Shown here: one piece after another, positions 46,028-62,492 of the stretch
Numbering within the stretch: position 1 is the stretch's first letter
Layout of the letters: every line of letters begins with the position of its first letter
DNA from: an uncultured Gammaproteobacteria bacterium
Lineage (GTDB): Bacteria > Patescibacteriota > Patescibacteriia > JAHIZJ01
Assembly (NCBI GenBank): GCA_964371245.1
Contig: CAYJKP010000001.1
Location: 53,128 to 117,127, forward strand
Reading direction: 5' to 3'
DNA: 64,000 bases
The notes under the pieces: generated by a model
What the model saw: only the letters and a program-made list of their open reading frames with translations
Databases searched by the model: none
Told to the model about the DNA's origin: nothing
Program-made: the position numbers and the translations under genes

Positions 46028-49000
46028 ATGAATAAGCCTATAAAGCTTGGTCTCGCTCTCCTTCTTGGTGCAGCGTTTTTTATTTTGCATAGTAATACCG
46101 CCAGCGCCGAAGATGTAGTCTTACATGGTCGTGAGGCGCAATTGCCGCTCTCAACGTCTGGAAAGGTGGTTGTGAAATATAATGAGCAACTCGTGAAACT
46201 AGCGGAAGAAAGCGGTCAGTATCAGGCTTCGGTCATGGCCGGGGTGCATGCCCTTACCGAAGACGCATTACACGAAGACCAAAACCTTGGCGTTTTTTCG
46301 ATCCGTGACGGCAAAACCATTGCTTCAAAAATTGAAGAATTGCAGCACAACCCACTCGTCGATTACGCCGAGCCGGAATACCTATATTATCCCGAAAGCA
46401 CGACGCCAAATGATTCATACTATTCTCTTCTTTGGGGTTTGAATAACACTGGCCAAACAGTCAACGGCACGAGCGGCACGGCTGATGCTGATATTGACGC
46501 GGCCGAAGCCTGGGATATTGCACGAAACGCGAGCGATACCATCGTGGCGGTCATTGATACGGGCGTCAACCTCAGTCATCCCGAACTATCGGCCAGCATT
46601 GTTCAGGGCTATGATTTTGTTGACGATGATACCTCACCGTATGACGTCGGCGGTCATGGCACGCACGTGGCCGGTACAATCGCCGCGCGTGGGAATAACA
46701 GCGACGGCGTTACCGGTGTTTCCTGGAGCGCGAAAATTATGCCGATCCGCGTCCTCGGCATCGGGGGCGGCACGAACTCGGATATTGCCGACGGTATCCG
46801 CTACGCCGTCGATCATGGAGCAAAAGTACTGAACATGAGTTTGGGCGGGACCGGCTATAGCCAAGTGTTGTATGACGCAATTGATTACGCGAAGACACAC
46901 GACGTGTTAGCCGTGGTCGCCGCCGGAAACGACGGTCGGAACAATGACGGCGGTACCCACACCTATCCCTGCGATTATGACCTCGACAATATTATCTGCG
47001 TCGCAGCAACAACGCAAACTGACGCCCTGGCCAGTTTTTCCAATTACGGTACAACCTCGGTCGACGTGGCGGCGCCGGGTACAAACATCATGAGCACCTA
47101 TCCCGAGCCGGCGCTGATCGAATATTTTGATAATGCCTCGCACGCGACGATGTACGGGTACGATTTCACCGGTACGGACTTTACGGTCAGCGGCGATTCC
47201 GCGCCACAGGGCTGGATCGTCACCGACGTCTCGGGAGACAAATGGGCGCAGGCGTGGTATGGCGGGCCGTACAATAATGTTGATACGTACATTACGTCGA
47301 CGAGCATCAGTCTCAGCGGAGAGCATTCAATTCTCTTGAAATTCACCTACGATTTTTTAACAGAAAGTTCACCCACGGAGGCGTGCGAATACGATTATCT
47401 CGGGATCGACGTGTACAACGGTTCCAGCTGGACGACAGTCGATAAATTATGCAATTATTTCGGTGATCCGTGGGGCGGCGGCGAGGCGTTGGATGTCGCT
47501 GAATATGATCTGTCGGCGTATGCGGCGAGTGCGACCAAGGTCCGATTTCATTGGCACACGGATGCGACGGGCGGCAGTGCAGGCTTTTTTATCAATAATG
47601 TCTTTGTTTATAAAACCGGCGAAAGCTACACCTATCTCAATGGAACTTCAATGGCCACGCCGCACGTCGCCGGTCTGGCCACCTTGCTCCGGGGGTACAA
47701 GCCGAGCGCGAGTTATTCGCTGGTCAAAGAGGCGATAACCGATTCGGTCGACGCAAAGAGCTCACTGAGCGGAAAAATAGTGACCGGCGGCCGGATCAAC
47801 GCCTATGCCGCTGTGTCCTCGCTCGACGGAACGCCACCGACGACGTCGCTGTCGCGCAATCCCAGCGGTCCGAATGGCGACAACGGGTATTATGTGACCG
47901 TTCCCTCAATCACGCTGCGCGCCACCGATTCCGGCTCGGGAGTGGCGAAAACATATTATAAATGGGACAGCGGCACATATTCCGAGTATCACGGCTCAAT
48001 TCCGGCGCCGGAAGGGGTTCATGTGCTCAAATATTATTCAACTGATTTGGCGGGAAATCGCGAAACGACCAAGAATAAAAAATTCAGGGTCGACACCCAT
48101 CACCCGCGGATAGAATTTACCCGTTCACTGTATCGAAACACGACCCTTTCCGCCCAGCGGACAATATCCGGAACGGGCAAGGATGGCGGCTCTCGGCTGA
48201 AGTATGTCATGATGAACGGCACGCTGCTGCCACTGAGCAAAGGGGTATTTAGCACGGCTGTAACCCTGAAGGATGGTTTAAATAAATATACGTTCGTCGC
48301 GAAAGACAACGCTGGCAATAAAACCACAGTGATTAAGTATGCGTATTACCGAAACGGACGCGTGCTCGGCACGGCCGCACCCGTCGAACGTATCATCACA
48401 ACCGCTCATCCCGGTCGTCCTCCTCAGGTCAGGATTTTTGACAAAAAAGGGACGTTGAAAAATCAATGGTTTGCCTACGGGCAAGATTTCAAGACGGGCG
48501 TAAGCTTGGCCACCGGCGACGTGAACAACGACGGTCAAGCCGAGGTGATCGTCGGTCCGGCCGGCGTTGACGCGTCGCTCGTAAAAGTGTTTACCCAGAA
48601 AGGTACCCTTCTAAAACAGTGGTATGCCTATCCGGCTGAGTGGCAGATTGGCGCCACCGTGGCAACAGGCGACGTCAACGGCGACGGGACAATCGAAATC
48701 ATTGTTCTCCCGGCCGTAAAAAAACCGGCCCAAGTAAAAGTATTTACGTATTCAGGCAGGCTCAAATATCAATTCTTTGCTGACACGGCGCCCACCTTGC
48801 TGAATCTGGCCGTCGGCGACGTCAACGGCGATTGGAAAGACGAAATCATTGTTTCAGCGACAGCCGGCTCCGGACCTGAGGTGCGCGTTTATACCTACAA
48901 AGGGAAATTGGCTTATCGCTTCAATGCCTATGCCCCGGGTTTCCGCGGCGGCGTTGAAATTGCAGCCGGTGATGTAAATAACGATAAAAAAGACGAGATT

Positions 49001-49270
49001 ATTACGGGCGTCATGGGTGCTGGCACCAGCCAGGTTCGGGTTTTTAAAAGGGATGGTACGGCCATAAACCAATTTTTTGCCTATGACCTGAGTTACCGTG
49101 ACGGCGTGACGATGGCCTCGGCCGACATCAATGGTGACGGCAAAGATGAAATAATCACTGGGACGGCGCCGGGGCAATCAGGCATTGTTAGGACGTTTAA
49201 GAAAGACGGTTCGCGCGTAAGCCAATTTTTCGCCTTTCCAAAGGAATGGCCGATCGGCGTGAAACTATAA
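46028..49270 (+). CDS. secreted subtilisin-like (S8) serine protease with C-terminal FG-GAP repeat beta-propeller
   Basis: Signal peptide. I9-like propeptide. Catalytic triad motifs AVIDTGV, HGTHVAGT and GTSMATPHVAG. Five or more GDVN(G/N)DG..EII FG-GAP repeats. Confidence 0.85.
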   Translation: MNKPIKLGLALLLGAAFFILHSNTASAEDVVLHGREAQLPLSTSGKVVVKYNEQLVKLAEESGQYQASVMAGVHALTEDALHEDQNLGVFSIRDGKTIASKIEELQHNPLVDYAEPEYLYYPESTTPNDSYYSLLWGLNNTGQTVNGTSGTADADIDAAEAWDIARNASDTIVAVIDTGVNLSHPELSASIVQGYDFVDDDTSPYDVGGHGTHVAGTIAARGNNSDGVTGVSWSAKIMPIRVLGIGGGTNSDIADGIRYAVDHGAKVLNMSLGGTGYSQVLYDAIDYAKTHDVLAVVAAGNDGRNNDGGTHTYPCDYDLDNIICVAATTQTDALASFSNYGTTSVDVAAPGTNIMSTYPEPALIEYFDNASHATMYGYDFTGTDFTVSGDSAPQGWIVTDVSGDKWAQAWYGGPYNNVDTYITSTSISLSGEHSILLKFTYDFLTESSPTEACEYDYLGIDVYNGSSWTTVDKLCNYFGDPWGGGEALDVAEYDLSAYAASATKVRFHWHTDATGGSAGFFINNVFVYKTGESYTYLNGTSMATPHVAGLATLLRGYKPSASYSLVKEAITDSVDAKSSLSGKIVTGGRINAYAAVSSLDGTPPTTSLSRNPSGPNGDNGYYVTVPSITLRATDSGSGVAKTYYKWDSGTYSEYHGSIPAPEGVHVLKYYSTDLAGNRETTKNKKFRVDTHHPRIEFTRSLYRNTTLSAQRTISGTGKDGGSRLKYVMMNGTLLPLSKGVFSTAVTLKDGLNKYTFVAKDNAGNKTTVIKYAYYRNGRVLGTAAPVERIITTAHPGRPPQVRIFDKKGTLKNQWFAYGQDFKTGVSLATGDVNNDGQAEVIVGPAGVDASLVKVFTQKGTLLKQWYAYPAEWQIGATVATGDVNGDGTIEIIVLPAVKKPAQVKVFTYSGRLKYQFFADTAPTLLNLAVGDVNGDWKDEIIVSATAGSGPEVRVYTYKGKLAYRFNAYAPGFRGGVEIAAGDVNNDKKDEIITGVMGAGTSQVRVFKRDGTAINQFFAYDLSYRDGVTMASADINGDGKDEIITGTAPGQSGIVRTFKKDGSRVSQFFAFPKEWPIGVKL

Positions 49271-50051: not shown

Positions 50052-51935
50052 ATGAAGACAAAACGAATAATAATTATTGCCACATCATTCATTATCGGTC
50101 TGCTTGTGGTTTCCGGAGCAGCCGTTTATTTTTTTCTCTGGCAGCCAAAAGTAACATTGGTTTCGCCGGCGGACGAGGCGACTCAGGTTGCGCTTGACGC
50201 AACGATTCTCATCCGGTTTGATAAACCAATCAATCGCCGCGCGCTCGTTCCGAGATTGACACCGGATTTGGACGGCGAGTGGAGTTATGAATCGCCGCTG
50301 GCTGGCCGTCAAATGTATCAAGCCATTCGGTTTGTGCCCAACCGCGTTTTTGAGCCGAGCACCCGGTACACTGTGGCCCTGGAAGGAATTACTGACCTGG
50401 CGCAGTACGCGCAGCCAAAAACCTATACCATTACCTTTATCACCCAAGAATTGCCAACAGTCTCAAGCGTGGCGCCAGCTGACGGCTCAACGACAGTGTC
50501 ACCGCAGACGAACATCGAAATCGCCTTGACTGGAGCGAATCACGACTATGCCGAGTTTGAGGTTGTTTTCGATCCAGCGATTGCCTACACGCCGCGGCAA
50601 AACGAGACACTGGATCGATATACGATTATTCCTGATACCAAGTTCAACCAGGGTGCAACCTATACACTGACCATCAACCGTTCGTTTGTTGTCCGGGATC
50701 GACAAACGCAGGTCATTACCTATCGAGGCGAGCCCGAAAAAATGTATCAGGGAACTTTTACGATCGCGCCGCCGCCGCGGGCTGAAAAAGTATATCCGAC
50801 CGGCGAACAGGTATTCACTGACGAAAAACCGACGCTAATGTTTACCGAACCGATGGATAGCGCTAGTTTAAATGAACATTTCATCGTCACGCCCGTTATC
50901 GCCGGGGAGCTCTCATTGTCTGATGATCAATCGACCGCCACCTTCACGCCCGCCGTCGCGTTGACTTTTGATACCGACTATCGCATAACAGTCACCGCTG
51001 GCGCCGAAAATGCGAATGGGGGATTTTTACCGGAAGACGTTACCTACACGTTTCATACCATCGGCCCGGTCGAGGCGACGCACCATGCACCGTCGGACGG
51101 AGCCACCGGCGTAGCGATCGGCAGCAGCATCGCGGTATCGTTTAATCAGGCGGTTGATCGCGCCTCAGCTGAAAAGGCGTTCATTACCGAACCGGCGATC
51201 TACGGATCATTTACCTGGAACGATCAAACCATGACGTTCAAACCAAACAACGCGCTGTTGTTTGATACAACCTATCAGGTTCGGCTCACCAGCGGCATTC
51301 AAAGCATTCGTGGCCAAAATTCCCGGGCAACCTACGGTTTCACATTCGCAACAGCGCCGTCGACCGTGAAGCTCAACGTTGCCATCGACTTACAAGACCA
51401 CGCTTTATCATGTGAAGCCGCCGCGCTGAAAATGGCCCTGGCAAATAAAGGCGTGCGCGTGTCAGAAAACGATATTATGAACTATGTCGGATTCGATCCG
51501 ACGCCACACAAGGGCTCAACCTGGGGCGATGCCTATCGCGCATACGTCGGCGACATCAACGGCCGGCAAAATACTACCGGTTATGGCGTCTATTGGGATC
51601 CGATCGCGCAAGCGGCCAATCATTGGCGCCCAAGCCAAGCCTTCACTGGTTGGACCGCGAGCCAGGTCGCTGAGGAAATTGACAGCGGAAATGCCGTTGT
51701 GATCTGGGGAGTGTACGGCCGGGGCTATGAAGATTCATGGTACACGCCGACGGGAAAATACATCTATGCTTGGAAAGGCGAGCATGCCCGAACGGTCATC
51801 GGTTTTATTGGGAGCGTCGACAATCCGATCAAGTTTATCATCAATGATCCCTATGCCGGTCAGATAACCTGGACGAAAGCGCAACTTGAAAGCAACTGGG
51901 GAATATTTGGCAATGCTGGAGTAGTCGTGCGGTAG
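50052..51935 (+). CDS. secreted protein with SbsA-type Ig-like repeats and C-terminal peptidase C39-like domain
   Basis: Signal/anchor. Four or more repeats of the P.DG.T.V.....I...F...M type. C-terminus has Cys (HALSCEAAALKMAL) and downstream His/Asp, resembling YvpB/C39_2. Confidence 0.5.
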   Translation: MKTKRIIIIATSFIIGLLVVSGAAVYFFLWQPKVTLVSPADEATQVALDATILIRFDKPINRRALVPRLTPDLDGEWSYESPLAGRQMYQAIRFVPNRVFEPSTRYTVALEGITDLAQYAQPKTYTITFITQELPTVSSVAPADGSTTVSPQTNIEIALTGANHDYAEFEVVFDPAIAYTPRQNETLDRYTIIPDTKFNQGATYTLTINRSFVVRDRQTQVITYRGEPEKMYQGTFTIAPPPRAEKVYPTGEQVFTDEKPTLMFTEPMDSASLNEHFIVTPVIAGELSLSDDQSTATFTPAVALTFDTDYRITVTAGAENANGGFLPEDVTYTFHTIGPVEATHHAPSDGATGVAIGSSIAVSFNQAVDRASAEKAFITEPAIYGSFTWNDQTMTFKPNNALLFDTTYQVRLTSGIQSIRGQNSRATYGFTFATAPSTVKLNVAIDLQDHALSCEAAALKMALANKGVRVSENDIMNYVGFDPTPHKGSTWGDAYRAYVGDINGRQNTTGYGVYWDPIAQAANHWRPSQAFTGWTASQVAEEIDSGNAVVIWGVYGRGYEDSWYTPTGKYIYAWKGEHARTVIGFIGSVDNPIKFIINDPYAGQITWTKAQLESNWGIFGNAGVVVR

Positions 51936-52255: not shown

Positions 52256-55200
52256 ATGAACTCAGTAAAAAATTCCAGTCAAAAAACCGGGAAATTTTTA
52301 CGCGCCCAGAAAAAAGTAAAAGGTCCGGCGTCGTCTTCTCGAACCTTGCGAAAAACACAGGGTGGATTTGCCCTACTCGGAAAGCAATTTTTACCCATTA
52401 TTATTGTTCTCATTATAGCCGTCCTGGCTGCGGCTGTACTGCTCTATCGCCAGTCCAGCCAGTCAAACTATGCCGGCATTACTCGACCGGAGCTGACCGG
52501 ACAATTCGGATTGAAGGCGGTTAAGACCGATTCGGCCGGGATTGAGCCAACCACTACCTTTTTGTTAAGCTCGAATCGATCACTCTCAGCCGATGTTATC
52601 GAAGAATTGGTTACTTTTTCGCCGGAAGTGAAATATAAAGTCCGCAAACTGAAGGAAGAATCTTCTTTTAACGGTTTTTTGAGCAAAGTATTCGCCCAAG
52701 AGCCCAATACGAACAACACGAATGGGGAATCAGCCGTTAGCTCATATGAATTAAAGCCTGTCACGGCGCTCCACGAAGACACGAACTATCAAGTAACCAT
52801 TGCAAAAACAAAGTACTCGGACCGGGAATATCAGTGGGCTTTTCCGGTAAAGGCAAAGTTCCAGGTTCTGGAATCGCATCCTCGGCACCAGGCGACCTAT
52901 GTGCCGACAAATTCTACCGTTGAGATCACGATGAATCGAGAGAAATTTATCACCCCGGAAAAACATTTCTCACTCTCCCCGAATGTTGAGGGTACGCTCG
53001 AGCAGCACGGCAACCGGCTTGTTTTTTTGAGCAACCAACTGGCTGAAAAAACAGTTTATACCGCAACGCTAAAAAAGGGATTGAAGGTTGAGGGCAGTGA
53101 TGAAGAATTAACGCAAGACTATACCTTCAGTTTTGAGACAAGCGAATCGACGTATTCGTCGGGCCGAGCTCAATTTCGATTTAATTCGGACTTCCTGGAA
53201 TTTCTGCCGGACAAACAACCCTATTTCAGCGTCTACTATTATAATTTTGAACCCAAGGATCTCCAGGCAAATTTATACCGCTTTGATAAAGCCGATCAGT
53301 TTATATCCGCCTACCAAAACAGCCGCAACTGGAATCTCCGCTGGACGCATTTCACCTGGGAGGGAGCGGGCAGCCAATATGAGCCGGATCCCGATCAGCT
53401 GATGCTTACGTTTCCAGTCAATATTGTCCAGGTTGATTATCAGAAATTTTTTGAGGTGCCCCAAAAACTTGACCCGGGCTATTATCTCATCGATCTCCAG
53501 GCGGCTGACCAGCGTCACCAAGTCTGGTTGCAAATCACCCCAGTCTCACATTATTTTTCGGTCACGCACGAAAACAGTCTTGTCTGGCTGGCTGACTTTC
53601 CAAGTAAAGAGCCAACGCAGAATACCCAGATAACCTTTGTTGATCAGGCTGGTGAAGACGTAAAACTTGGCAAAACTGACTCGAATGGCCTGATCCAATT
53701 TGCCACACCAACGAGCCTAACCCAGTCCGTCATCGCTTCCCCGACGCCAAAATTTATCAAAGCCGCAACCGAGGACCAGCCGCTCTATATCCGGGTAAGC
53801 GACAAATACGGCTATCGCTCGACAGCGGCCGAGGGTGATCCGTACTGGGACTACTTGTCACTTGATCGCTATGTCTATCAGATGACGGATACGGTTCGGT
53901 TTTGGGGCGTTGTCCAAGGGCGGACCGAGGACATGCGCGAGAAAAAGGTGACGGCGGCAATTACGAGCGGGTATTATTATTACAATGAAGACGGATCGCA
54001 ATCGGATTTGCCGGTTCTGCAAAGCAAAGAGGTCGTTGTCTCGCCGTTTAACACGATTGAAGGCGATCTCTCGTTTACCGGATTAACGCCTGGAACGTAC
54101 AACGTCATGGTTCGTGACGGCGAGCGAACAATTTCCTCGGCGACCTTTGAAGTCATGACCTATATCAAGCCGGCCTATCAAATCACCGTGACGCCATCGA
54201 AACAGGCTATTTTTGCAGGCGAGCCGATCGACTTCGCGGTCCAGGCGAAGTTCTACGACGGTACGCCGGTACCGAATATCGCGCTGAAATATTACAGCTG
54301 GTGGAACGATGCCGTCCAAGGCGAGCTGAAATTGGACAGCGACGGCGAAGGTACGTTTACGTACACGCCAGCCTATACCGAGAGCGACTATCAATACTAT
54401 CCACGATACTTCGAAATGACGTTTTCGCCGTCCTTGGCTGAGGAAGGGGAGATTTCCGGCGCGGGCGGCGTCCTCGTTTTCGGACCGCATATGTCGCTTG
54501 AAACGAAATCAACCTACACCGGCGATCATAACTATCTCTTTACTGCGAAACTGAATTCGATCGTGTTGAAAGACTTGCCGACCAGTAATAATGGTAATTC
54601 CGATTCGTATTCCTTGTTGTCCGAATACATTGGCGAGCCTGTGCCGGACCACGTTCTTAACGCAAAAGTAGTAAAAACAACCATTCAAAAGATCGAGGAC
54701 GGGACATACTATGACCCGATCAATCGAGTCAACCAGAAGAAATATCGGTATGAATCGAAAGACGATATCATTGAGGAGCTGCAGGGGAAGACTGACGCAA
54801 ACGGCGAGTGGAGTTTTACCAGAGAATATCCCTATCAGGAGCTTGTTGGTTACCGAGTTGAATGTACGGGTCAGGATCAAGAGGGTCGGAACTTCAAATC
54901 CACCCAGTACATGTATTCTGGCGAAGGGTATATTCCGGGCAAGGAATTTAATGCGATACTCAGCCTGAACAACAATAACGGGACGACCCAATATTCAGTC
55001 GACGACCCGGTCAAACCTGAAGTACGCATTACCCTGGGACAATTGCCTGAAAAGTCGAAAATACTTTATTATCGTCGCCAAAACCAGATCGACAAAACCT
55101 GGGTGACGTCGGATCTAACGCTGGAAGAGAATTTTTCCCAGCAGTTTGTTCCCTCTGTTACGTATCGGGCAGTAATGCTCGGTCCGACTGGTTTTGTGGA

Positions 55201-57799
55201 AACGGGTGACGAGACGGCAGCATTTAAGAAAACCGACCGAGCGCTGTCAATAGAAATAAATCCGGATAAAACCGGCTATCGACCGGGTGAAAAAGTTACT
55301 CTGAACGTAGCCGTAACCGATAAAGACAAGAAGCCGGTTGCGGCCCAGGTCAATCTGGCCGCTGTTGACGAGGCGCTCTTCCACGTCGTGCCGTATTCTT
55401 GGCAACCAAAGATTCTCGACAGCCTCTACCGGAACGTAACCGTGTGGCCGCTTTCCGGCGCATCTGATTACGCCTTATTGGAGCAGGGGGCTGAACGCGG
55501 CGGCTGTTTCGGGGCGGATACCGCCATCCTCATGGCTGATAAAAAGACCAAGCCGATCCAAGATATCAAAGTGGGCGATACCGTTCTCGCTTCAGCGGGC
55601 GATGGCACAACTGTCGTGAAACCAGCCGTCGTTCAAGGGACGTCCGTTCACCTGGTGAATACGTTCCTCGTCATTAACGGCTCGCTCGTCGTCACGCCGG
55701 AACACCCACTCTTTGCGAATGATCGCTGGCAGCCGGCTGGAAACCTGAAAACAGGCGATGTCTTATTGGGCAGCGATGGAAAAGCCAAGCCGATTGAGTC
55801 AGTCGTGACGACGACGGATCGCTCAATCCCGGTCTATAATCTCGTTGTCGGCACGTATCATACCTATTTTGCCAATGGCCTCCTGGCTCATAATGCCGAA
55901 AAGGCCGGTGGCCCACGTTCCAACTTTGTCGATGTTGCGCTCTATCAGACCATTGAAACCAACATGAGCGGCCAAGGTTCAGCTACCTTTACCGCACCCG
56001 ACAATCTTACCTCCTGGCGGGTCACTGCCCTGGCGTACGACCCTGATCTGATTCTGGCTGGCCAAACGGCCAAGCTCGTGCCAGTCGCACTGCCGCTGTT
56101 CGTCGACAGTACCTTGAACTCATTCTATCGGACAAATGACAAACCGATTGTTCGAGTACGCGCCTTTGGCAACGATTATCAGGTCGGTCAGGCGACGGAT
56201 TTCGCTCTAACCAGCACCTCGCTCAACCTCAATCTCGCCAAAACCTCGACTGACCGGGAAGTACGTTTTGATCTCGGCGCAATCCCGGCCGGTGACCATG
56301 ATATTACGGTTGGCGTAAAGCAAGGTCAGGCTCAGGATTCCGTAAAACGTCAACTCCAGGTAATCGATAATCACTTCCGGATCGTTCAAGCCAAAGAATA
56401 CGCCGTCACCAATGACCTGAAAGACATCGAAGGGAACACCCAGGCCTACACCCACCTGGTATTTGCCGACGCCGGCCGTGGCAAATATTTTCAGCCACTC
56501 CTTGAGCTCAGTTACGAAACGGGCGTTCGCTCGGATCAAACGGCGGCTGCGTACACGGCGAATGCGTTGCTCGAAAAATATTTCAAATACCCGGCGCCCG
56601 AGCCGCTTGATCTCTCCGGGTTTCAGGTCCAGGATACCGGCGCTTTAGCGCTCTTTCCGTATAGCGATAGCGATTTAGAAGTCTCGGCAAAACTCGCTGA
56701 TTTGGCTCGAGCCAACGTGCCCGAAGCCGAGCTGAACCGGTATTTCACAACCTCTCTCTCGGACGATAAAGCCGATCTCAATCGGATTAGTAAGGCACTC
56801 TATGGCTTGGCGAGTCTGGGCGAGCCGGTTCTCGCGAAGATCCAAACCGTGCTTCAGCAATCAGAGTTATCAGTGGAAGACCGTCTCTATCTGGCCATCG
56901 GTTTGATCAGGCTGGGCGATCAGGAAGGGGCGAGACTCGTGTATCAAGATGCCATTCGAATAAATCTCCGTTTTGAAGGGGGCGAGGCGTGGCTGGAAAG
57001 CGAGAGCGATCTGACGCGTCGAGTAAAACTCACCGGTTTATCGGGCATTCTCGCGGCTGAGTTAAAATTAACGGATGACGCCAACGCACTCTGGAGCTAC
57101 CTGTCTGGTCACTACCCAGAAACCGATCTTGACGGTATCGAGCGCGCCTTGATGATCCGGGCGCTCCTGGTCATGGCCGATCCGTCGGCAGCCAGTTTTA
57201 CCTACGATACCGGTAGCCGAAAGGAAACCGTCAAATTAGAGAACGGCGCTACATACGCGCTTGATTTGGCGGCTGTGGAATTGACTGCTCTCCGTTTCAG
57301 CGATGTCACAGGCAATATCGTGCTGGTCAGCTGGTTTGAGCGGAGTAAGAATCCGGAGGAACTCCCCCGCAACCCCGATCTCGTTTTGACTCGAAAGTAC
57401 CTCGTGAATGATAAGCCGACGACGACGTTTGCTGAGGGGGATATTGTTAAGGTTCGCCTCGATCCGAATATTGGCGCGAACGCCATCGACGGCTTGTACC
57501 AGGTGACGGATTATCTGCCGAGTGGCTTGCGACCAATCACTCAACTGTATAATCGAAATTTATCGTCTGGTACGGAATGCGATCCGATCTGGTACCCGTC
57601 CATGATCATGAACCAGAGCGTGTATTTCACCATCGGAAAGGACTTTGATCGCACCCCTGACTGCACAAACCGAACGCTCAACTATTACGCCCGGGTTGTT
57701 AGCCCCGGCGGATACTCGGCCGAACCGGCAGTCATCCAGTCGCTCAAGAATCTCACGAGCTTAAACTTAACCGACGCACATAATATTACGATTAAGTAG
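52256..57799 (+). CDS. giant alpha-2-macroglobulin-family protein (thioester-less) with embedded Hint domain
   Basis: 1847 aa with an N-terminal TM anchor. RSNFVDVALYQ...TAPDNLTSW matches the A2M-domain start (RxYFPETWxW...VPDxITxW). No CGEQ motif seen. Confidence 0.7.
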   Translation: MNSVKNSSQKTGKFLRAQKKVKGPASSSRTLRKTQGGFALLGKQFLPIIIVLIIAVLAAAVLLYRQSSQSNYAGITRPELTGQFGLKAVKTDSAGIEPTTTFLLSSNRSLSADVIEELVTFSPEVKYKVRKLKEESSFNGFLSKVFAQEPNTNNTNGESAVSSYELKPVTALHEDTNYQVTIAKTKYSDREYQWAFPVKAKFQVLESHPRHQATYVPTNSTVEITMNREKFITPEKHFSLSPNVEGTLEQHGNRLVFLSNQLAEKTVYTATLKKGLKVEGSDEELTQDYTFSFETSESTYSSGRAQFRFNSDFLEFLPDKQPYFSVYYYNFEPKDLQANLYRFDKADQFISAYQNSRNWNLRWTHFTWEGAGSQYEPDPDQLMLTFPVNIVQVDYQKFFEVPQKLDPGYYLIDLQAADQRHQVWLQITPVSHYFSVTHENSLVWLADFPSKEPTQNTQITFVDQAGEDVKLGKTDSNGLIQFATPTSLTQSVIASPTPKFIKAATEDQPLYIRVSDKYGYRSTAAEGDPYWDYLSLDRYVYQMTDTVRFWGVVQGRTEDMREKKVTAAITSGYYYYNEDGSQSDLPVLQSKEVVVSPFNTIEGDLSFTGLTPGTYNVMVRDGERTISSATFEVMTYIKPAYQITVTPSKQAIFAGEPIDFAVQAKFYDGTPVPNIALKYYSWWNDAVQGELKLDSDGEGTFTYTPAYTESDYQYYPRYFEMTFSPSLAEEGEISGAGGVLVFGPHMSLETKSTYTGDHNYLFTAKLNSIVLKDLPTSNNGNSDSYSLLSEYIGEPVPDHVLNAKVVKTTIQKIEDGTYYDPINRVNQKKYRYESKDDIIEELQGKTDANGEWSFTREYPYQELVGYRVECTGQDQEGRNFKSTQYMYSGEGYIPGKEFNAILSLNNNNGTTQYSVDDPVKPEVRITLGQLPEKSKILYYRRQNQIDKTWVTSDLTLEENFSQQFVPSVTYRAVMLGPTGFVETGDETAAFKKTDRALSIEINPDKTGYRPGEKVTLNVAVTDKDKKPVAAQVNLAAVDEALFHVVPYSWQPKILDSLYRNVTVWPLSGASDYALLEQGAERGGCFGADTAILMADKKTKPIQDIKVGDTVLASAGDGTTVVKPAVVQGTSVHLVNTFLVINGSLVVTPEHPLFANDRWQPAGNLKTGDVLLGSDGKAKPIESVVTTTDRSIPVYNLVVGTYHTYFANGLLAHNAEKAGGPRSNFVDVALYQTIETNMSGQGSATFTAPDNLTSWRVTALAYDPDLILAGQTAKLVPVALPLFVDSTLNSFYRTNDKPIVRVRAFGNDYQVGQATDFALTSTSLNLNLAKTSTDREVRFDLGAIPAGDHDITVGVKQGQAQDSVKRQLQVIDNHFRIVQAKEYAVTNDLKDIEGNTQAYTHLVFADAGRGKYFQPLLELSYETGVRSDQTAAAYTANALLEKYFKYPAPEPLDLSGFQVQDTGALALFPYSDSDLEVSAKLADLARANVPEAELNRYFTTSLSDDKADLNRISKALYGLASLGEPVLAKIQTVLQQSELSVEDRLYLAIGLIRLGDQEGARLVYQDAIRINLRFEGGEAWLESESDLTRRVKLTGLSGILAAELKLTDDANALWSYLSGHYPETDLDGIERALMIRALLVMADPSAASFTYDTGSRKETVKLENGATYALDLAAVELTALRFSDVTGNIVLVSWFERSKNPEELPRNPDLVLTRKYLVNDKPTTTFAEGDIVKVRLDPNIGANAIDGLYQVTDYLPSGLRPITQLYNRNLSSGTECDPIWYPSMIMNQSVYFTIGKDFDRTPDCTNRTLNYYARVVSPGGYSAEPAVIQSLKNLTSLNLTDAHNITIK
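55505..55894 (+). other. Hint / bacterial intein-like (BIL) domain inside the A2M-family CDS
   Basis: In-frame 130-aa segment CFGADTAIL...VVTPEHPLF (TxxH block B)...VYNLVVGTYHTYFANGLLAHN (blocks F/G ending His-Asn). The +1 residue is Ala. Confidence 0.7.
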
Positions 57800-57815: not shown

Positions 57816-58700
57816 GTGCTAATTGGGCTCCTCTGCCTCATTGGCGGAGGAGCTTGGTTGATACTGGCGCCAAAAAAGTCGACCGGGGAAAATGTAGCCA
57901 GCGTAAATTCTCAACAGCCTCAAACGATCCGGTCAACTGGTTTTTTTGAATACACGGAAGCCATTGACCGTGTTTTTTCTGAAACGCAACCGGCGTCGTT
58001 TGCCGACCAGACACCCGTTCAGCTTGGCCTTACCTCGCATCATCTTCCGACCGCCGCTCCATTGATCGCACGATTTTATGCCACTCTGCAGAAGCAATTG
58101 GGACCGCGAAAAACGTTCGTTATTGTTGGGCCCGATCACGCTGAACGTTGCCCTCAATATGTAACCACGACCGCTCTTCCATATCAAACACCCTACGGTC
58201 TGTTACCGATTGATCCGGAGGTATCAGCGGCCGCGCAGGCGGCTGGCGCAGCCATCAGCGAAGGTTGTTTTATAGGCGAGCATTCAACGAGCGTTCAAGC
58301 ACTCTTTGTTCGGCGGAACTTTCCCGAGGCACTGGTCGTGCCGATACTCTTATCCTCAGCGACAAGCGATGAGTCGCTGCGCCGACTCGCCCAAGCGCTC
58401 TCGGCCCGGTCGGATTCGATCACCGTTATTGGCAGCGTCGATTTTTCTCACGCCCTGCCAGCAGCCGAGGCGCGACAACGCGATGCTGCAACCGATCAAA
58501 TATTGCTCAAGCAAAACGTATCTAGCCTAACACTTGATCAGGTCGATTCGCCGCCGACATTGAAACTCCTGTATTTGTTAAATCAGCGGTTAGGGAATAA
58601 CCCCCCGGTAATTTTTGATCGTGCAAATACAGTTGATTATACCGGTGCGGCTGAGAACACAACCGGCTATAGAAACATGATGTTTTTTAATTCGGAGTAG
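57816..58700 (+). CDS. Memo-like (AmmeMemoRadiSam system protein B-like) protein
   Basis: N-terminal TM helix. LTSHHLP and VIVGPDH resemble the MEMO1 APHAGYTY / ILGPSHH blocks. Confidence 0.45.
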   Translation: MLIGLLCLIGGGAWLILAPKKSTGENVASVNSQQPQTIRSTGFFEYTEAIDRVFSETQPASFADQTPVQLGLTSHHLPTAAPLIARFYATLQKQLGPRKTFVIVGPDHAERCPQYVTTTALPYQTPYGLLPIDPEVSAAAQAAGAAISEGCFIGEHSTSVQALFVRRNFPEALVVPILLSSATSDESLRRLAQALSARSDSITVIGSVDFSHALPAAEARQRDAATDQILLKQNVSSLTLDQVDSPPTLKLLYLLNQRLGNNPPVIFDRANTVDYTGAAENTTGYRNMMFFNSE

Positions 58701-60577: not shown

Positions 60578-61057
60578 ATGCGTGAAAAAGAGTTTAACTA
60601 CAGTCAAATAACGAAATACATCTATCTCAGCTCGCGCTTGTACACGCGCAAGGATCTTGAGCAAATTTTACGTTTGGGCGTGCAAGCGAATGTTGATCTT
60701 GAGATGGAAAAAATGGACCGGCCGAAAGACCTCCTGGCCTATCTCTGGATTCCGGTCAAGGATTTTAACTCGCCCTCGCTGGAACAGTTTTTCCTGGGAG
60801 TCGATTTTATCGACCAGCTGGTGCGACGCCGGATTAAAACCATTGTGCATTGCAACGTCGGGTACGGCCGAGCGCCAACATTGGTCGCCGCCTACCTGAT
60901 GGCGATAAAAGGATATTCGTTGAAACGCGCCGTAACGTTTTTAAGCCACAAGCGCCCGGGTGTCCATCCGAGTCCTGGGCAGATTCGCGGCATGAAAACG
61001 TTTATCCGTGCCTTTCGGTTGACCCAAAAAAAGAGCAAGAGCAAAGTGGTTATATAG
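60578..61057 (+). CDS. dual-specificity protein phosphatase (CX5R)
   Basis: HCNVGYGRAPT active-site P-loop. Confidence 0.75.
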   Translation: MREKEFNYSQITKYIYLSSRLYTRKDLEQILRLGVQANVDLEMEKMDRPKDLLAYLWIPVKDFNSPSLEQFFLGVDFIDQLVRRRIKTIVHCNVGYGRAPTLVAAYLMAIKGYSLKRAVTFLSHKRPGVHPSPGQIRGMKTFIRAFRLTQKKSKSKVVI

Positions 61058-61122: not shown

Positions 61123-61821
61123 ATGCGTCTCCATGTTTTTTTAGCCAAAGCCGGCATTGCCTCACGACGGACCTGCGAAGAATACATCCGCCGCGGTTTT
61201 GTTATGGTGAATGGAAAGAAAGTAACGGCCATGGGCGTGACGGTTGAACCGGGGAAAGACGTGGTCGAATATAAACACCGAGTCGTAACCCTGGCTCAAT
61301 TACACCGCTTAATTGCCTATTATAAACCTGTCGGGGTTGTTTCGACGATGCAGCGGAGTCAAGAACGGGGCAAGTCGCTGAGCGAAGCGCTGCCGTTTTC
61401 CGAACGACTTTTTCCGATCGGCCGGCTTGATAAGAATTCCGAGGGTCTGTTGCTGCTCACCAACGACGGTGCCCTAGCGCTGCAATTAAGCCATCCGCGC
61501 TACGAGCATGAAAAGGAATACGAGGTTACGGTGGCGCGGCGGTTGGAACCGAATGAACTTGAGCGGCTGCGCCAACCTTTCTCGCTAGACGGCTATCGGA
61601 CCCAGCCAGCACAGATTGAACCAGTCGGTGAGCGAACCTACCGTATTATCTTACACGAAGGTCGGAAACGACAGATTCGGCGGATGTGCGAAAAAATTGG
61701 CGTCCCTGTTCTGCGACTCATTCGCGTGCGTCTGGGCCCGTTCGCGCTCGGCACGCTCCAACCGGGCGCTTGGCAAGAGCTTGATATTCAGCAGGCCCAG
61801 CAAGTGCTCGCCGAAACATGA
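61123..61821 (+). CDS. pseudouridine synthase, RsuA/RluB family
   Basis: S4 domain (RLHVFLAKAGIASRR) and catalytic GRLDKNSEGLLLLTNDG. Start chosen at MRLHV; the ORF-track start is further upstream. Confidence 0.85.
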   Translation: MRLHVFLAKAGIASRRTCEEYIRRGFVMVNGKKVTAMGVTVEPGKDVVEYKHRVVTLAQLHRLIAYYKPVGVVSTMQRSQERGKSLSEALPFSERLFPIGRLDKNSEGLLLLTNDGALALQLSHPRYEHEKEYEVTVARRLEPNELERLRQPFSLDGYRTQPAQIEPVGERTYRIILHEGRKRQIRRMCEKIGVPVLRLIRVRLGPFALGTLQPGAWQELDIQQAQQVLAET

Positions 61822-62492
61822 TACCGTTACGCGATCACAATCCGTCGGGGAAAACCCCATATGTAACGTACGGCCTGATTTGTATTAACGTCGCCGTTTT
61901 TGTCTATATGCTGACCCTTGGCAGTGGGGTTGATGCGTTTATCAGCCGCTACGCGCTCACACCAGCCGATATCCTTCGCGGAACAGGTTGGCTAACGTTC
62001 ATCACCTCGATGTTTATTCACGGTGGCTTTTTGCATATTATTGGAAATATGCTTTTCTTTTATATTTTTGGCGACAACCTGGAAGCGTACCTCGGACGAC
62101 TTAAATTTATCGGTTTCTATCTTGCCAGCGGTATTGTTGCCACGGCTGCGCAATTTCTCATCGCGTCGCATTCCACGGTTCCGCAAATTGGCGCCTCGGG
62201 CGCAATCGCCGGCATCATGGGCGCGTATCTGGCCCTCTTTCCAGAGGCGAGAATTGAAACACTCTGGACGCTGGGTTTTTGGATTCAACGGGTTACTGTG
62301 TCGGCCCGATTCATGCTCCTGTACTGGATCATATTCCAGTTTTTCTACGGTTTTGGCAGTATCGGCGCGCAGGGCGGCGTCGCGTATTTTGCGCATATCG
62401 GTGGTTTCATATTCGGCTACGGATTAATGAAAATCTTCGCCCGCAACCAGGGAAGGAAGATACCGCCGCCGACTCGATACTTCTATCAGTGA
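61818..62492 (+). CDS. rhomboid-family intramembrane serine protease
   Basis: GASGAIAG (GxSG) and AHIGG His motif. Six TM helices. Confidence 0.8.
   Translation: MIPLRDHNPSGKTPYVTYGLICINVAVFVYMLTLGSGVDAFISRYALTPADILRGTGWLTFITSMFIHGGFLHIIGNMLFFYIFGDNLEAYLGRLKFIGFYLASGIVATAAQFLIASHSTVPQIGASGAIAGIMGAYLALFPEARIETLWTLGFWIQRVTVSARFMLLYWIIFQFFYGFGSIGAQGGVAYFAHIGGFIFGYGLMKIFARNQGRKIPPPTRYFYQ

Follow-up and report, generated by a model that had tools for sequence, protein, structure and literature searches.

Why should an intein-like, putatively self-processing domain lie inside a membrane-anchored surface protein of the alpha-2-macroglobulin (A2M) family, and what would it do there? The question is raised by a 64,000-nucleotide stretch of DNA (hereafter the window; contig CAYJKP010000001.1 of assembly GCA_964371245.1, positions 53,128 to 117,127, forward strand) from an uncultured bacterium that is named as a member of the Gammaproteobacteria and placed in the Patescibacteriota by its GTDB lineage. 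One of its genes encodes an 1847-residue A2M-like protein that contains a 130-residue Hint domain of the bacterial intein-like (BIL) type. The answer given here, which we regard as probable though far from certain, is that this domain excises itself from the bait loop of its host and so matures or activates it without an external protease, by a chemistry and a trigger that are deduced by comparison with related systems. The analysis suggests that known parts, a BIL Hint and an A2M scaffold, have entered an undescribed, conserved and mechanistically suggestive combination. The preliminary description of this DNA knew of no BIL domain in an A2M protein, and a full-text literature search likewise found no paper pairing a Hint or BIL domain with alpha-2-macroglobulin.

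A Hint domain in the bait loop of an A2M-like protein

The Hint domain and its two linkers are located in the window as follows.

55505-55894, plus strand: mini-Hint domain, type-A BIL-like, 130 residues (Pfam, PDB sequence search and Foldseek)
55448-55504, plus strand: disordered N-side linker PLSGASDYALLEQGAERGG, ending in Gly-Gly at positions -2/-1 (AlphaFold2 (AF2) predicted local distance difference test score (pLDDT) <50, model residues 186-204)
55895-55915, plus strand: C-side linker AEKAGGP, with Ala at +1 and Lys1216 at +3 (AF2 pLDDT <50, model residues 334-339)

The domain (residues 1084-1213 of the host, translated as CFGADTAIL...TPEH...VYNLVVGTYHTYFANGLLAHN) is in frame within the single open reading frame 52256-57799, and translation bears out the in-frame segment of 130 residues that had been described as starting with Cys, containing TPEH, ending in His-Asn and being followed by Ala. 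Its catalytic motifs are Cys1084 (Cys1), T1147-P-E-H1150, H-T-Y-F-A with H1202-T1203, and the terminal H1212-N1213. The junctions (arrows mark the domain borders) are AERGG↓CFGAD on the N-side and LLAHN↓AEKAGG on the C-side, encoded by GGC GGC↓TGT and CAT AAT↓GCC, so that the +1 codon GCC specifies Ala1214. Two independent assemblies, from related genomes, have the same junctions with synonymous differences: L008, which is 93% identical to the window in the Hint region (+1 Ala, GCC), and L007 (+1 codon GCT). The continuous reading frame and these identical junctions exclude a frameshift or sequencing error at the Hint, and no assembly artefact, the possibility of which had been raised, was found at the junction.

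Profile searches, which had been proposed as a check, gave a significant match of the segment to Pfam PT-HINT (E=1.4e-13, 51.7 bits versus a cut-off of 27.7); Vint and Hom_end_hint also exceed their cut-offs, and NCBIfam intein_Cterm is marginally above its own when the segment is scanned alone. The best match in a PDB sequence search is 2LWY, a "bacterial intein-like domain" (Clostridium thermocellum BIL, 1.6e-10), followed by BIL2 of Tetrahymena BUBL1 (6TMM/6Y75, 8e-10) and by inteins from 4e-7 onward. The AF2 model of the Hint and its flanks is all-beta, and the top Foldseek matches are again BIL2 and 2LWY (template modelling (TM) scores of 0.80-0.84, root-mean-square deviations of 2.0-2.7 A, 32-34% identity), with inteins at about 1e-8 and Hedgehog proteins at about 1e-6 after them. 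The Pfam families above cut-off and the all-beta model establish the Hint (horseshoe) fold. The BIL-type assignment first made from the letters alone agrees with the nearest solved relatives, which by both sequence and fold are two BILs, ahead of inteins and Hedgehog proteins.

Every sequence feature of a type-A BIL domain is present: the N-terminal Cys, the block-B T-x-x-H, the terminal His-Asn, and a non-nucleophilic +1 residue. The terminal His-Asn is what separates type A from type B BIL domains (PMC4031507). A class-1 intein, in contrast, would have Cys, Ser or Thr at +1, where the window has Ala (GCC) and the two other assemblies agree; it would also be expected to have a homing endonuclease, a sporadic spread and an essential, conserved host, whereas the Hint considered here is of fixed length, lies in a fast-evolving surface protein and has diverged together with it. 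Judged by the conservation of its residues, the segment is most likely a type-A BIL-like mini-Hint that is catalytically competent.

The features of the host protein are given below.

52256-57799, plus strand: host gene, 1847-residue membrane-anchored A2M-like protein in a single open reading frame (Pfam Big_5, bMG3, A2M_BRD, A2M and bMG10)
52385-52453, plus strand: N-terminal transmembrane anchor, residues 44-66, hydrophobic stretch QFLPIIIVLIIAVLAAAVLLY (sequence and hydropathy scan)
54983-55381, plus strand: A2M bait-region domain A2M_BRD, residues 910-1042 (Pfam PF07703, E=1.4e-8, 35.6 bits versus a cut-off of 22.7)
55916-56158, plus strand: R-x-x-F-x-D block and A2M domain (Pfam PF00207, residues 1228-1301), where the macroglobulin body resumes
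56477-57175, plus strand: helical TED-like domain, residues 1408-1640, a helical block in the AF2 model, with the decayed thioester site within it
56522-56539, plus strand: decayed thioester site GVRSDQ, residues 1423-1428, aligned column for column with GC-VEQ of the relatives P0203 and P0210
57410-57742, plus strand: C-terminal macroglobulin (MG) domain bMG10 (Pfam PF17973 at residues 1719-1829, under its cut-off), with Cys1775/Cys1803

A basic tail of approximately 43 residues precedes the hydrophobic helix, and from this tail and the single helix (positive-inside rule) the body of the protein is predicted to be extracytoplasmic. A profile built from 39 family members matches ECAM/YfhM of Escherichia coli (1.3e-26) and the Salmonella A2M, SaA2M (7e-19), as well as CD109, TEP1, human A2M and C5. 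With the AF2 model of residues 880-1847 (mean pLDDT 86.8), the best Foldseek match is ECAM (5A42, 8e-34), followed by 4RTD, 4ZIQ, A2ML1, Salmonella A2M, C3 and C5. An MG array, a bait-region domain, a TED-like arm and a C-terminal MG domain are all recognized, the CUB domain not being separately resolved; R, F, D and PDN-T-W of the block after the Hint are invariant or nearly so among relatives, and the Cys1775/Cys1803 pair recurs among them. The host is a true A2M-fold protein, and the two Pfam domains on either side of the Hint, A2M_BRD at residues 910-1042 and A2M at residues 1228-1301, uphold the earlier assignment of the flanks to this family.

The Hint lies between these two domains, and apart from the first 15 residues of the model chain, the only internal stretches of the model of residues 880-1847 with pLDDT below 50 are the linkers that flank it (residues 1065-1083, PLSGASDYALLEQGAERGG, and residues 1213-1218). 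In a profile built from the flanks with the Hint removed, the GAE-x-GG / GGG-x-R linker aligned to "...FGGDGDELKRGGKP..." of ECAM, and the insertion point falls within the "FGGDGDELKRGG" segment of that protein. According to the ECAM structure (PMC4498604), residues Arg923-Leu942 form a disordered bait, which elastase cuts. With human A2M, the alignment starts only after the Hint site, at the R-x-x-F-x-D block, which begins 7 residues past the Hint in the window protein and pairs with "TVRKYFPETWIW" of human A2M. We take the latter segment to be the one that directly follows the bait region of human A2M, and the site of the Hint to be in the same topological position as the ANA domain and processing site of C3, C4 and C5. 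From the low-pLDDT linkers, the alignment with the ECAM bait and the position of the R-x-x-F-x-D block, it follows that the Hint sits inside the bait loop of its A2M-like host. At the position homologous to the flexible bait region the model has disordered linkers, but these enclose a folded Hint. The preliminary description had placed the domain just upstream of the A2M domain, a position that stands and is here narrowed to the bait-region loop by the flank-profile alignment.

Conservation, inheritance and loss of the thioester

When the whole protein was used as the query, 66 relatives were returned, of which 19 (with identities down to 27%) have the Hint and the rest do not, and so the comparison of orthologues, suggested at the outset, found the insertion present in some and absent in others. 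A profile search of 1.84 billion representatives gave 899 proteins at E<=1e-30. The best 150 of these 899 matches, together with the relatives from the whole-protein search, make up a set of 214 proteins, among which 126 are A2M-like with a single match spanning the Hint and both flanks (110 of the 126 are 1600-1950 residues long, the others shorter); these 126 relatives are representatives of clusters at 50% identity. Cys1 and the terminal His-Asn are found in 126/126, as are the block-B His and the block-F Thr, with the block-B Thr in 125/126 and the block-F His in 121/126. Gly occupies position -1 in 125/126 and Gly-Gly positions -2/-1 in 117/126. The +1 residue is Asp in 54 relatives, Ala in 26, Glu in 24, Gln in 14, Ser in 4, Thr in 2, Asn in 1 and Ile in 1; it is non-nucleophilic in 120/126, is Asp, Ala, Glu or Gln in 118/126, and is never Cys, so that the canonical +1 residue by which orthologues might have revealed an ordinary intein is limited to Ser or Thr in 6/126. 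The first Lys of the C-extein is at +2 in 80 relatives and at +3 in 45 (125/126), and alignment with Hint-less relatives indicates that a near-invariant Lys at +2/+3 is confined to proteins with the Hint.

In the alignment of the relatives from the whole-protein search, the junctions of all Hint-bearing proteins read GAE-x-G-G↓C...H-N↓(x)-E/D-K-G-G, whereas Hint-less relatives have GAEKGG-(E/G)GGG in the same columns. The Hint is 127-132 residues long in 110 relatives, a fixed length that leaves no room for an endonuclease insert. Pairs of relatives are on average 46% identical in the Hint versus 30% in the host, and Hint and host identities correlate across pairs (Mantel r=0.47, a value reached by 0/999 permutations). 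This conservation and correlation point to vertical co-divergence of the Hint and its host under purifying selection. A recent horizontal insertion of the Hint was considered and rejected: there is no GC break at its borders, and it co-diverges with the host.

A scan of one genome per species yielded 453 related stretches, and among the best 80 of these 453 the Hint is present in 79, the remaining locus (L086, labelled Chloroflexia) being a weak match that spans the Hint only in part. The names attached to the best 80 loci are Uhr-, Magasanik-, Falkow-, Peregrini-, Peri-, Gracili-, Doudna-, Portnoy-, Collier- and Saccharibacteria, and Paceibacterota. Some metagenome-assembled genomes with the gene are labelled Gammaproteobacteria, Pseudomonadales, Flavobacteriales or Nanoarchaeia (e.g. 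L013, L015, L028, L029 and L061), and such labels outside Patescibacteria are probably those of mislabelled or contaminated bins. On this sequence evidence, the Hint-bearing host is a large, vertically inherited family of Patescibacteria (ultra-small CPR bacteria) and not a single insertion.

The same Hint subfamily is also found in proteins with 2 to 5 or more back-to-back Hints (P0068, P0069, P0072, P0075 and P0078), one of which, P0069, has 13 matched Hint stretches, many of them partial. Successive Hints are separated by only H-N-K-G-(G)-C in P0068, P0069 and P0075 and by other short joints in P0072 and P0078; self-excision would leave almost nothing of these proteins. The joints show Lys-Gly-Gly past the His-Asn to be characteristic of the subfamily.

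The intrachain thioester of the A2M TED is missing from the host: a motif search found no CxEQ in the whole 1847-residue protein, as the preliminary description had said. The thioester site is decayed, by alignment from GCxEQ to GVRSDQ, and in the corresponding columns of 110 relatives Arg is found in 108/110 and Asp in 101/110, P0203 and P0210 reading GYPYGC-VEQT. The latter two proteins (P0203, L088 5001-10406; P0210, L087 842-5848) combine a bait-loop Hint with an intact GC-VEQ and a Pfam TED, and are encoded with the same Memo-like and sigma factor operon partners that are described below.

The history of gain and loss was read from a neighbour-joining tree of 142 proteins, which was built without the Hint columns and took CxEQ-bearing A2Ms as its root. 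P0210 and P0203 are at the base of this tree, the thioester-less proteins form one clade, and Hint-less lineages are nested among Hint-bearing ones. In bootstraps, the thioester-less clade is monophyletic in 140/156 and the Hint-less proteins never are; parsimony gives 5-10 changes of Hint state, with the ingroup root reconstructed as Hint present in 117/156. The simplest reading of these sequences would be a single gain of the Hint in a thioester-bearing ancestor, followed by a single loss of the thioester and then by several precise deletions of the Hint. The Hint-less P0014-P0016 and P0022-P0041 have GAE-K/R-GG-(E/G)GGG at the columns of window residues 1078-1220, which resembles both Hint flanks joined. 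With Hint-less lineages nested within Hint-bearing ones on the tree, this linker may be the scar of a precise Hint deletion.

Proposed self-excision and its alternatives

If the Hint is active, then after export and folding of the host, Cys1084 would attack the carbonyl of Gly1083 (an N-S acyl shift) to give a Gly-thioester, and cyclisation of Asn1213 would cut the Asn1213-Ala1214 bond. Because there is no nucleophile at +1, the 13.7-kDa Hint would depart mainly via N- and C-terminal cleavage, leaving a 122-kDa anchored N-chain and a 70-kDa C-chain (computed masses). The two chains would be held together by an MG domain built of strands from either side of the bait, an association that we assume from what is known of C3 and A2M structures. 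A fraction of the molecules might be re-joined through attack on the thioester by the freed alpha-amine or by the conserved Lys1216, linear GAERGGAEKAGGPR being the product expected from splicing by aminolysis. Either outcome would sever or remodel the protein's own bait loop and would do autocatalytically what bait cleavage does in A2M, or what removal of the ANA/C3a domain from the corresponding position does in C3. BIL domains have no +1 nucleophile with which to build the branched intermediate, and their products are predominantly N- and C-cleaved (PMC7664689), although in type-A BILs the amine released on cyclisation of the Asn can also attack the N-terminal thioester and so ligate the flanks (PMC4031507). 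Activation of ECAM is triggered by the untethering of its bait on cleavage (PMC4498604). In P0203 and P0210, with their intact CxEQ thioester, the effect of cutting the bait in this way would be evident.

Several considerations weigh against self-excision as an activating step. The conservation of catalytic residues would also be expected of a harmless trapped element that is obliged to remove itself. At least five lineages on the tree seem to retain the protein after losing the Hint, which indicates that the Hint is dispensable for basic function, and the phylogeny is a simple distance tree. Ser or Thr at +1 makes canonical splicing possible in 6/126 relatives. The cleavage, and the junctions at which it would take place, are predicted from sequence.

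The leading alternative, which we consider unlikely, is that the Hint is a trapped, host-neutral mini-intein or type-A BIL that removes itself, re-joins its flanks and adds no function, being kept only because imprecise loss would kill the host protein. The flanks of the window protein when joined, GAERGG-AEKAGGP-R, do resemble the Hint-less GAEKGG-EGGGE-R and GAERGG-GGGD-R, the Hint has been lost at least five times with the protein kept, and mini-inteins are able to persist vertically with intact catalytic residues. Splicing by type-A BILs does not require a +1 nucleophile (PMC4031507), but BILs of this kind mostly cleave (PMC7664689), which would be costly if an intact chain were needed; moreover, one substitution to Ser, Thr or Cys at +1 would give efficient splicing (PMC7664689), yet the residue is non-nucleophilic in 120/126 relatives. 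Nor is there a homing endonuclease or any trace of one, the host is a fast-evolving surface protein unlike the conserved, essential sites of inteins, the Hint is more conserved than the host, and the C-side Lys at +2/+3 is near-invariant only together with the Hint. If instead the Hint fold had lost its activity and served for structure or binding, or if the domain were an artefact of assembly, either of which is very improbable, then the ability of several lineages to use the protein without a Hint would be understandable, but not the invariance of the catalytic positions over 126 representatives in a host of about 30% identity, nor the agreement of three independent assemblies on the same junctions with synonymous changes in a continuous reading frame.

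By analogy with BUBL, the Hint might be a thioester-transfer device that passes the Gly1083 thioester to Lys1216 (a branched splice) or to a lysine of another protein or cell-wall component, so that the anchored N-chain becomes covalently attached and the lost CxEQ warhead is replaced, a proposal that we think distinctly unlikely. BIL2 of BUBL, the second-closest solved relative, shares the R-G-G↓C junction and forms an isopeptide between the thioester of its Gly-Gly and the epsilon-amine of lysines on substrates, without ATP (PMC8616854). Gly-Gly at -2/-1 (117/126) and Lys at +2/+3 (125/126) fit such a device, as do the HN-K-G-G-C joints of the related tandem-Hint proteins, and loss of the thioester took place where the Hint was already present (the thioester-less clade being monophyletic in 140/156 bootstraps, with the members that have both outside it). 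However, this proposal rests purely on analogy, Hint-less and thioester-less relatives function without any covalent chemistry, and the conserved Lys may tune Asn cyclisation or just form part of the loop. P0203 and P0210 keep both the Hint and CxEQ, which speaks against strict replacement; with two members that have both and many that have neither, the stronger claim that the Hint strictly replaces the lost thioester is weakened. PT-HINT is the best Pfam family of the domain, and NCBI's automatic naming, the only label that databases give to homologues, calls P0001, P0002 and P0026 "polymorphic toxin-type HINT domain-containing protein", as if the Hint were a pre-toxin domain releasing a C-terminal toxin. 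This is scarcely credible: the 634 residues past the Hint are the A2M body (MG, CUB-like, TED-like and C-terminal MG), matching ECAM, Salmonella A2M and C3 end to end, they are conserved and not polymorphic, and the gene downstream encodes a conserved Memo-like protein and not an immunity protein. The polymorphic-toxin reading was rejected on account of the A2M fold downstream of the Hint (family profile and Foldseek).

If the preferred reading, self-excision from the bait loop, is true, its consequences reach beyond this family. In the A2M/complement superfamily, the core route to activation is scission of a bait or plug at a single, fixed place; a family with its own cleavage chemistry there would be a natural experiment on how such scission drives the conformational change, and would give protein engineering a scaffold that activates itself. 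Intein research would gain a clear example of a BIL that has been domesticated at a single site in a single protein family and kept to the depth of a superphylum, and the junction motif GG↓C...HN↓x-D/E-K-GG hints at BUBL-like, amine-directed chemistry. P0203 and P0210 offer a natural test case for Hint-triggered activation of a thioester. A large family of Patescibacteria surface proteins that may sense or respond to the interface with host cells is evidently mis-annotated under the name "polymorphic toxin HINT".

Operon partners and relation to known systems

The host gene is followed by a gene that is conserved across the family.

57816-58700, plus strand: Memo-like protein with an N-terminal hydrophobic anchor, directly downstream of the host gene (Pfam PF01875, 1.7e-16)

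A Memo-like gene is downstream in 54 of the 71 Hint-bearing species loci with enough downstream sequence, and homologues are also located at L001 13594-14466, L002 13613-14503, L004 5374-6249 and L005 11229-12107. We know of no reported link of the Memo family to A2M-like proteins. A gene for an extracytoplasmic function (ECF) sigma factor (Sigma70_r2 and r4_2) is directly upstream, often overlapping the start codon, in 32/65 species loci (e.g. L002 7439-8008, L003 5340-5894, L005 5435-6004, L006 5450-5998 and L088 4463-4996), and at least one of the two partners accompanies the gene in 57 of 59 Hint-bearing species loci. Hint-less relatives have the same Memo-like and sigma factor partners. 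P0024 has a zf-HC2 anti-sigma N-terminus (4e-10) and is the sole relative with an anti-sigma domain recognizable by Pfam. Judging from these partners and from the zf-HC2 domain of P0024, the family has the appearance of membrane sensors or anti-sigma factors, perhaps of a new kind, whose ectodomain is A2M-like. The window copy lacks an ECF sigma/anti-sigma pair: no ECF sigma factor was found in the 64-kb window by tblastn with four family-linked sigma factors, and its N-terminal tail has no Pfam match. Full-text literature searches found no relevant link of anti-sigma factors with macroglobulin domains.

A broader and quite unlikely proposal makes the Hint both a built-in, protease-independent trigger and a warhead: its self-excision from the bait loop would act on the A2M-like sensor as a convertase acts on C3 in removing ANA, and the Gly1083 thioester would form a covalent isopeptide with Lys1216 or an external amine. 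In the basal CxEQ members, the classical thioester would be armed autocatalytically by this self-excision, which, where a sigma factor gene is linked, would supply the site-1 step of a novel ECF signalling pathway in Patescibacteria.

The scanned neighbours in the window include a Big_5/Peptidase_C39_2 protein, a VTT-domain protein, the Memo-like protein and iPGM; no pbpC (PBP1C) or YfaPQTA-type partner was found among them, and the known bacterial A2M operon types (ECAM with PBP1C, and YfaS/MagD with YfaP/Q/T/A) are not matched. Directly upstream of the host gene is a protease-rich surface-protein neighbourhood, in which 46028-49270 (plus strand) encodes a 1080-residue S8 subtilase with FG-GAP repeats and 50052-51935 (plus strand) a membrane-anchored protein with four Big_5 Ig-like domains and a Peptidase_C39_2 domain (double-glycine-peptidase-like). 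Neither gene is conserved beside homologues of the host in the loci compared, and for this reason the Peptidase_C39_2 gene product was rejected as the enzyme that might cut the conserved GG motifs. Further downstream are a dual-specificity phosphatase (60578-61057, plus strand) that also matches the polymorphic-toxin-system phosphatase family Tc-R-P, and, 3-4 kb from the host gene, a rhomboid intramembrane protease (61818-62492, plus strand). L001 shows synteny for the phosphatase and iPGM, which probably have nothing to do with the Hint.

Among known systems, the closest to the Hint itself are the type-A BIL domains (reportedly defined by Amitai et al. 2003 and Dassa et al. 2004), of which 2LWY has 34% identity to it and superimposes on its model with a TM score of 0.84 and a root-mean-square deviation of 2.0 A. 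Both are mini-Hints of approximately 130 residues with Cys1, a block-B TxxH, a terminal His-Asn, no +1 nucleophile and no endonuclease, and both are embedded in a variable extracytoplasmic bacterial protein. Unlike the BILs, which are scattered in hypervariable proteins, the Hint described here is inherited vertically over a superphylum at one site (the bait loop) of one family, and has a junction signature of its own, G-G↓C ... H-N↓(x)(D/E)-K-G-G, with an activity that is predicted. BIL2 of Tetrahymena thermophila BUBL (6TMM/6Y75) is the second-best match by sequence and the best by fold (32% identity, TM score 0.80), has a common R-G-G↓C N-junction and equally lacks a +1 nucleophile, but lies between eukaryotic ubiquitin-like domains and conjugates the upstream one to lysines (PMC8616854), whereas the Hint described here is flanked by A2M domains and is not known to conjugate.

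The scaffold has in common with ECAM/YfhM and SaA2M an MG array, a bait-region domain, a CUB/TED arm, a C-terminal MG domain and N-terminal membrane anchoring, and in alignment the family's GAE-x-GG...GGG linker is paired with the bait segment FGGDGDELKRGG of ECAM. It differs from them in having GVRSDQ in place of CxEQ, a transmembrane helix in place of a lipobox, a Memo-like gene and often an ECF sigma gene as partners, and a putative self-cleaving domain within the bait. Complement C3, C4 and C5 also have a folded domain, ANA, between the halves of a split MG domain in the same topological position, and the family profile alignment spans the bait-equivalent region of C5. Removal of ANA triggers the conformational change that exposes the thioester; ANA, however, has another fold and is cut by an external convertase, whereas the Hint has its own predicted cleavage chemistry. 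Anti-sigma factors of the FoxR/FecR type are membrane-spanning regulators with an extracytoplasmic part that cleaves itself at a Gly-Thr bond through an N-O acyl shift. The resemblance to them is that many relatives directly follow an ECF sigma gene and that P0024 has a zf-HC2 N-terminus, but the FecR-type proteins have a different fold without a Hint, and the window copy is not adjacent to a sigma factor gene.

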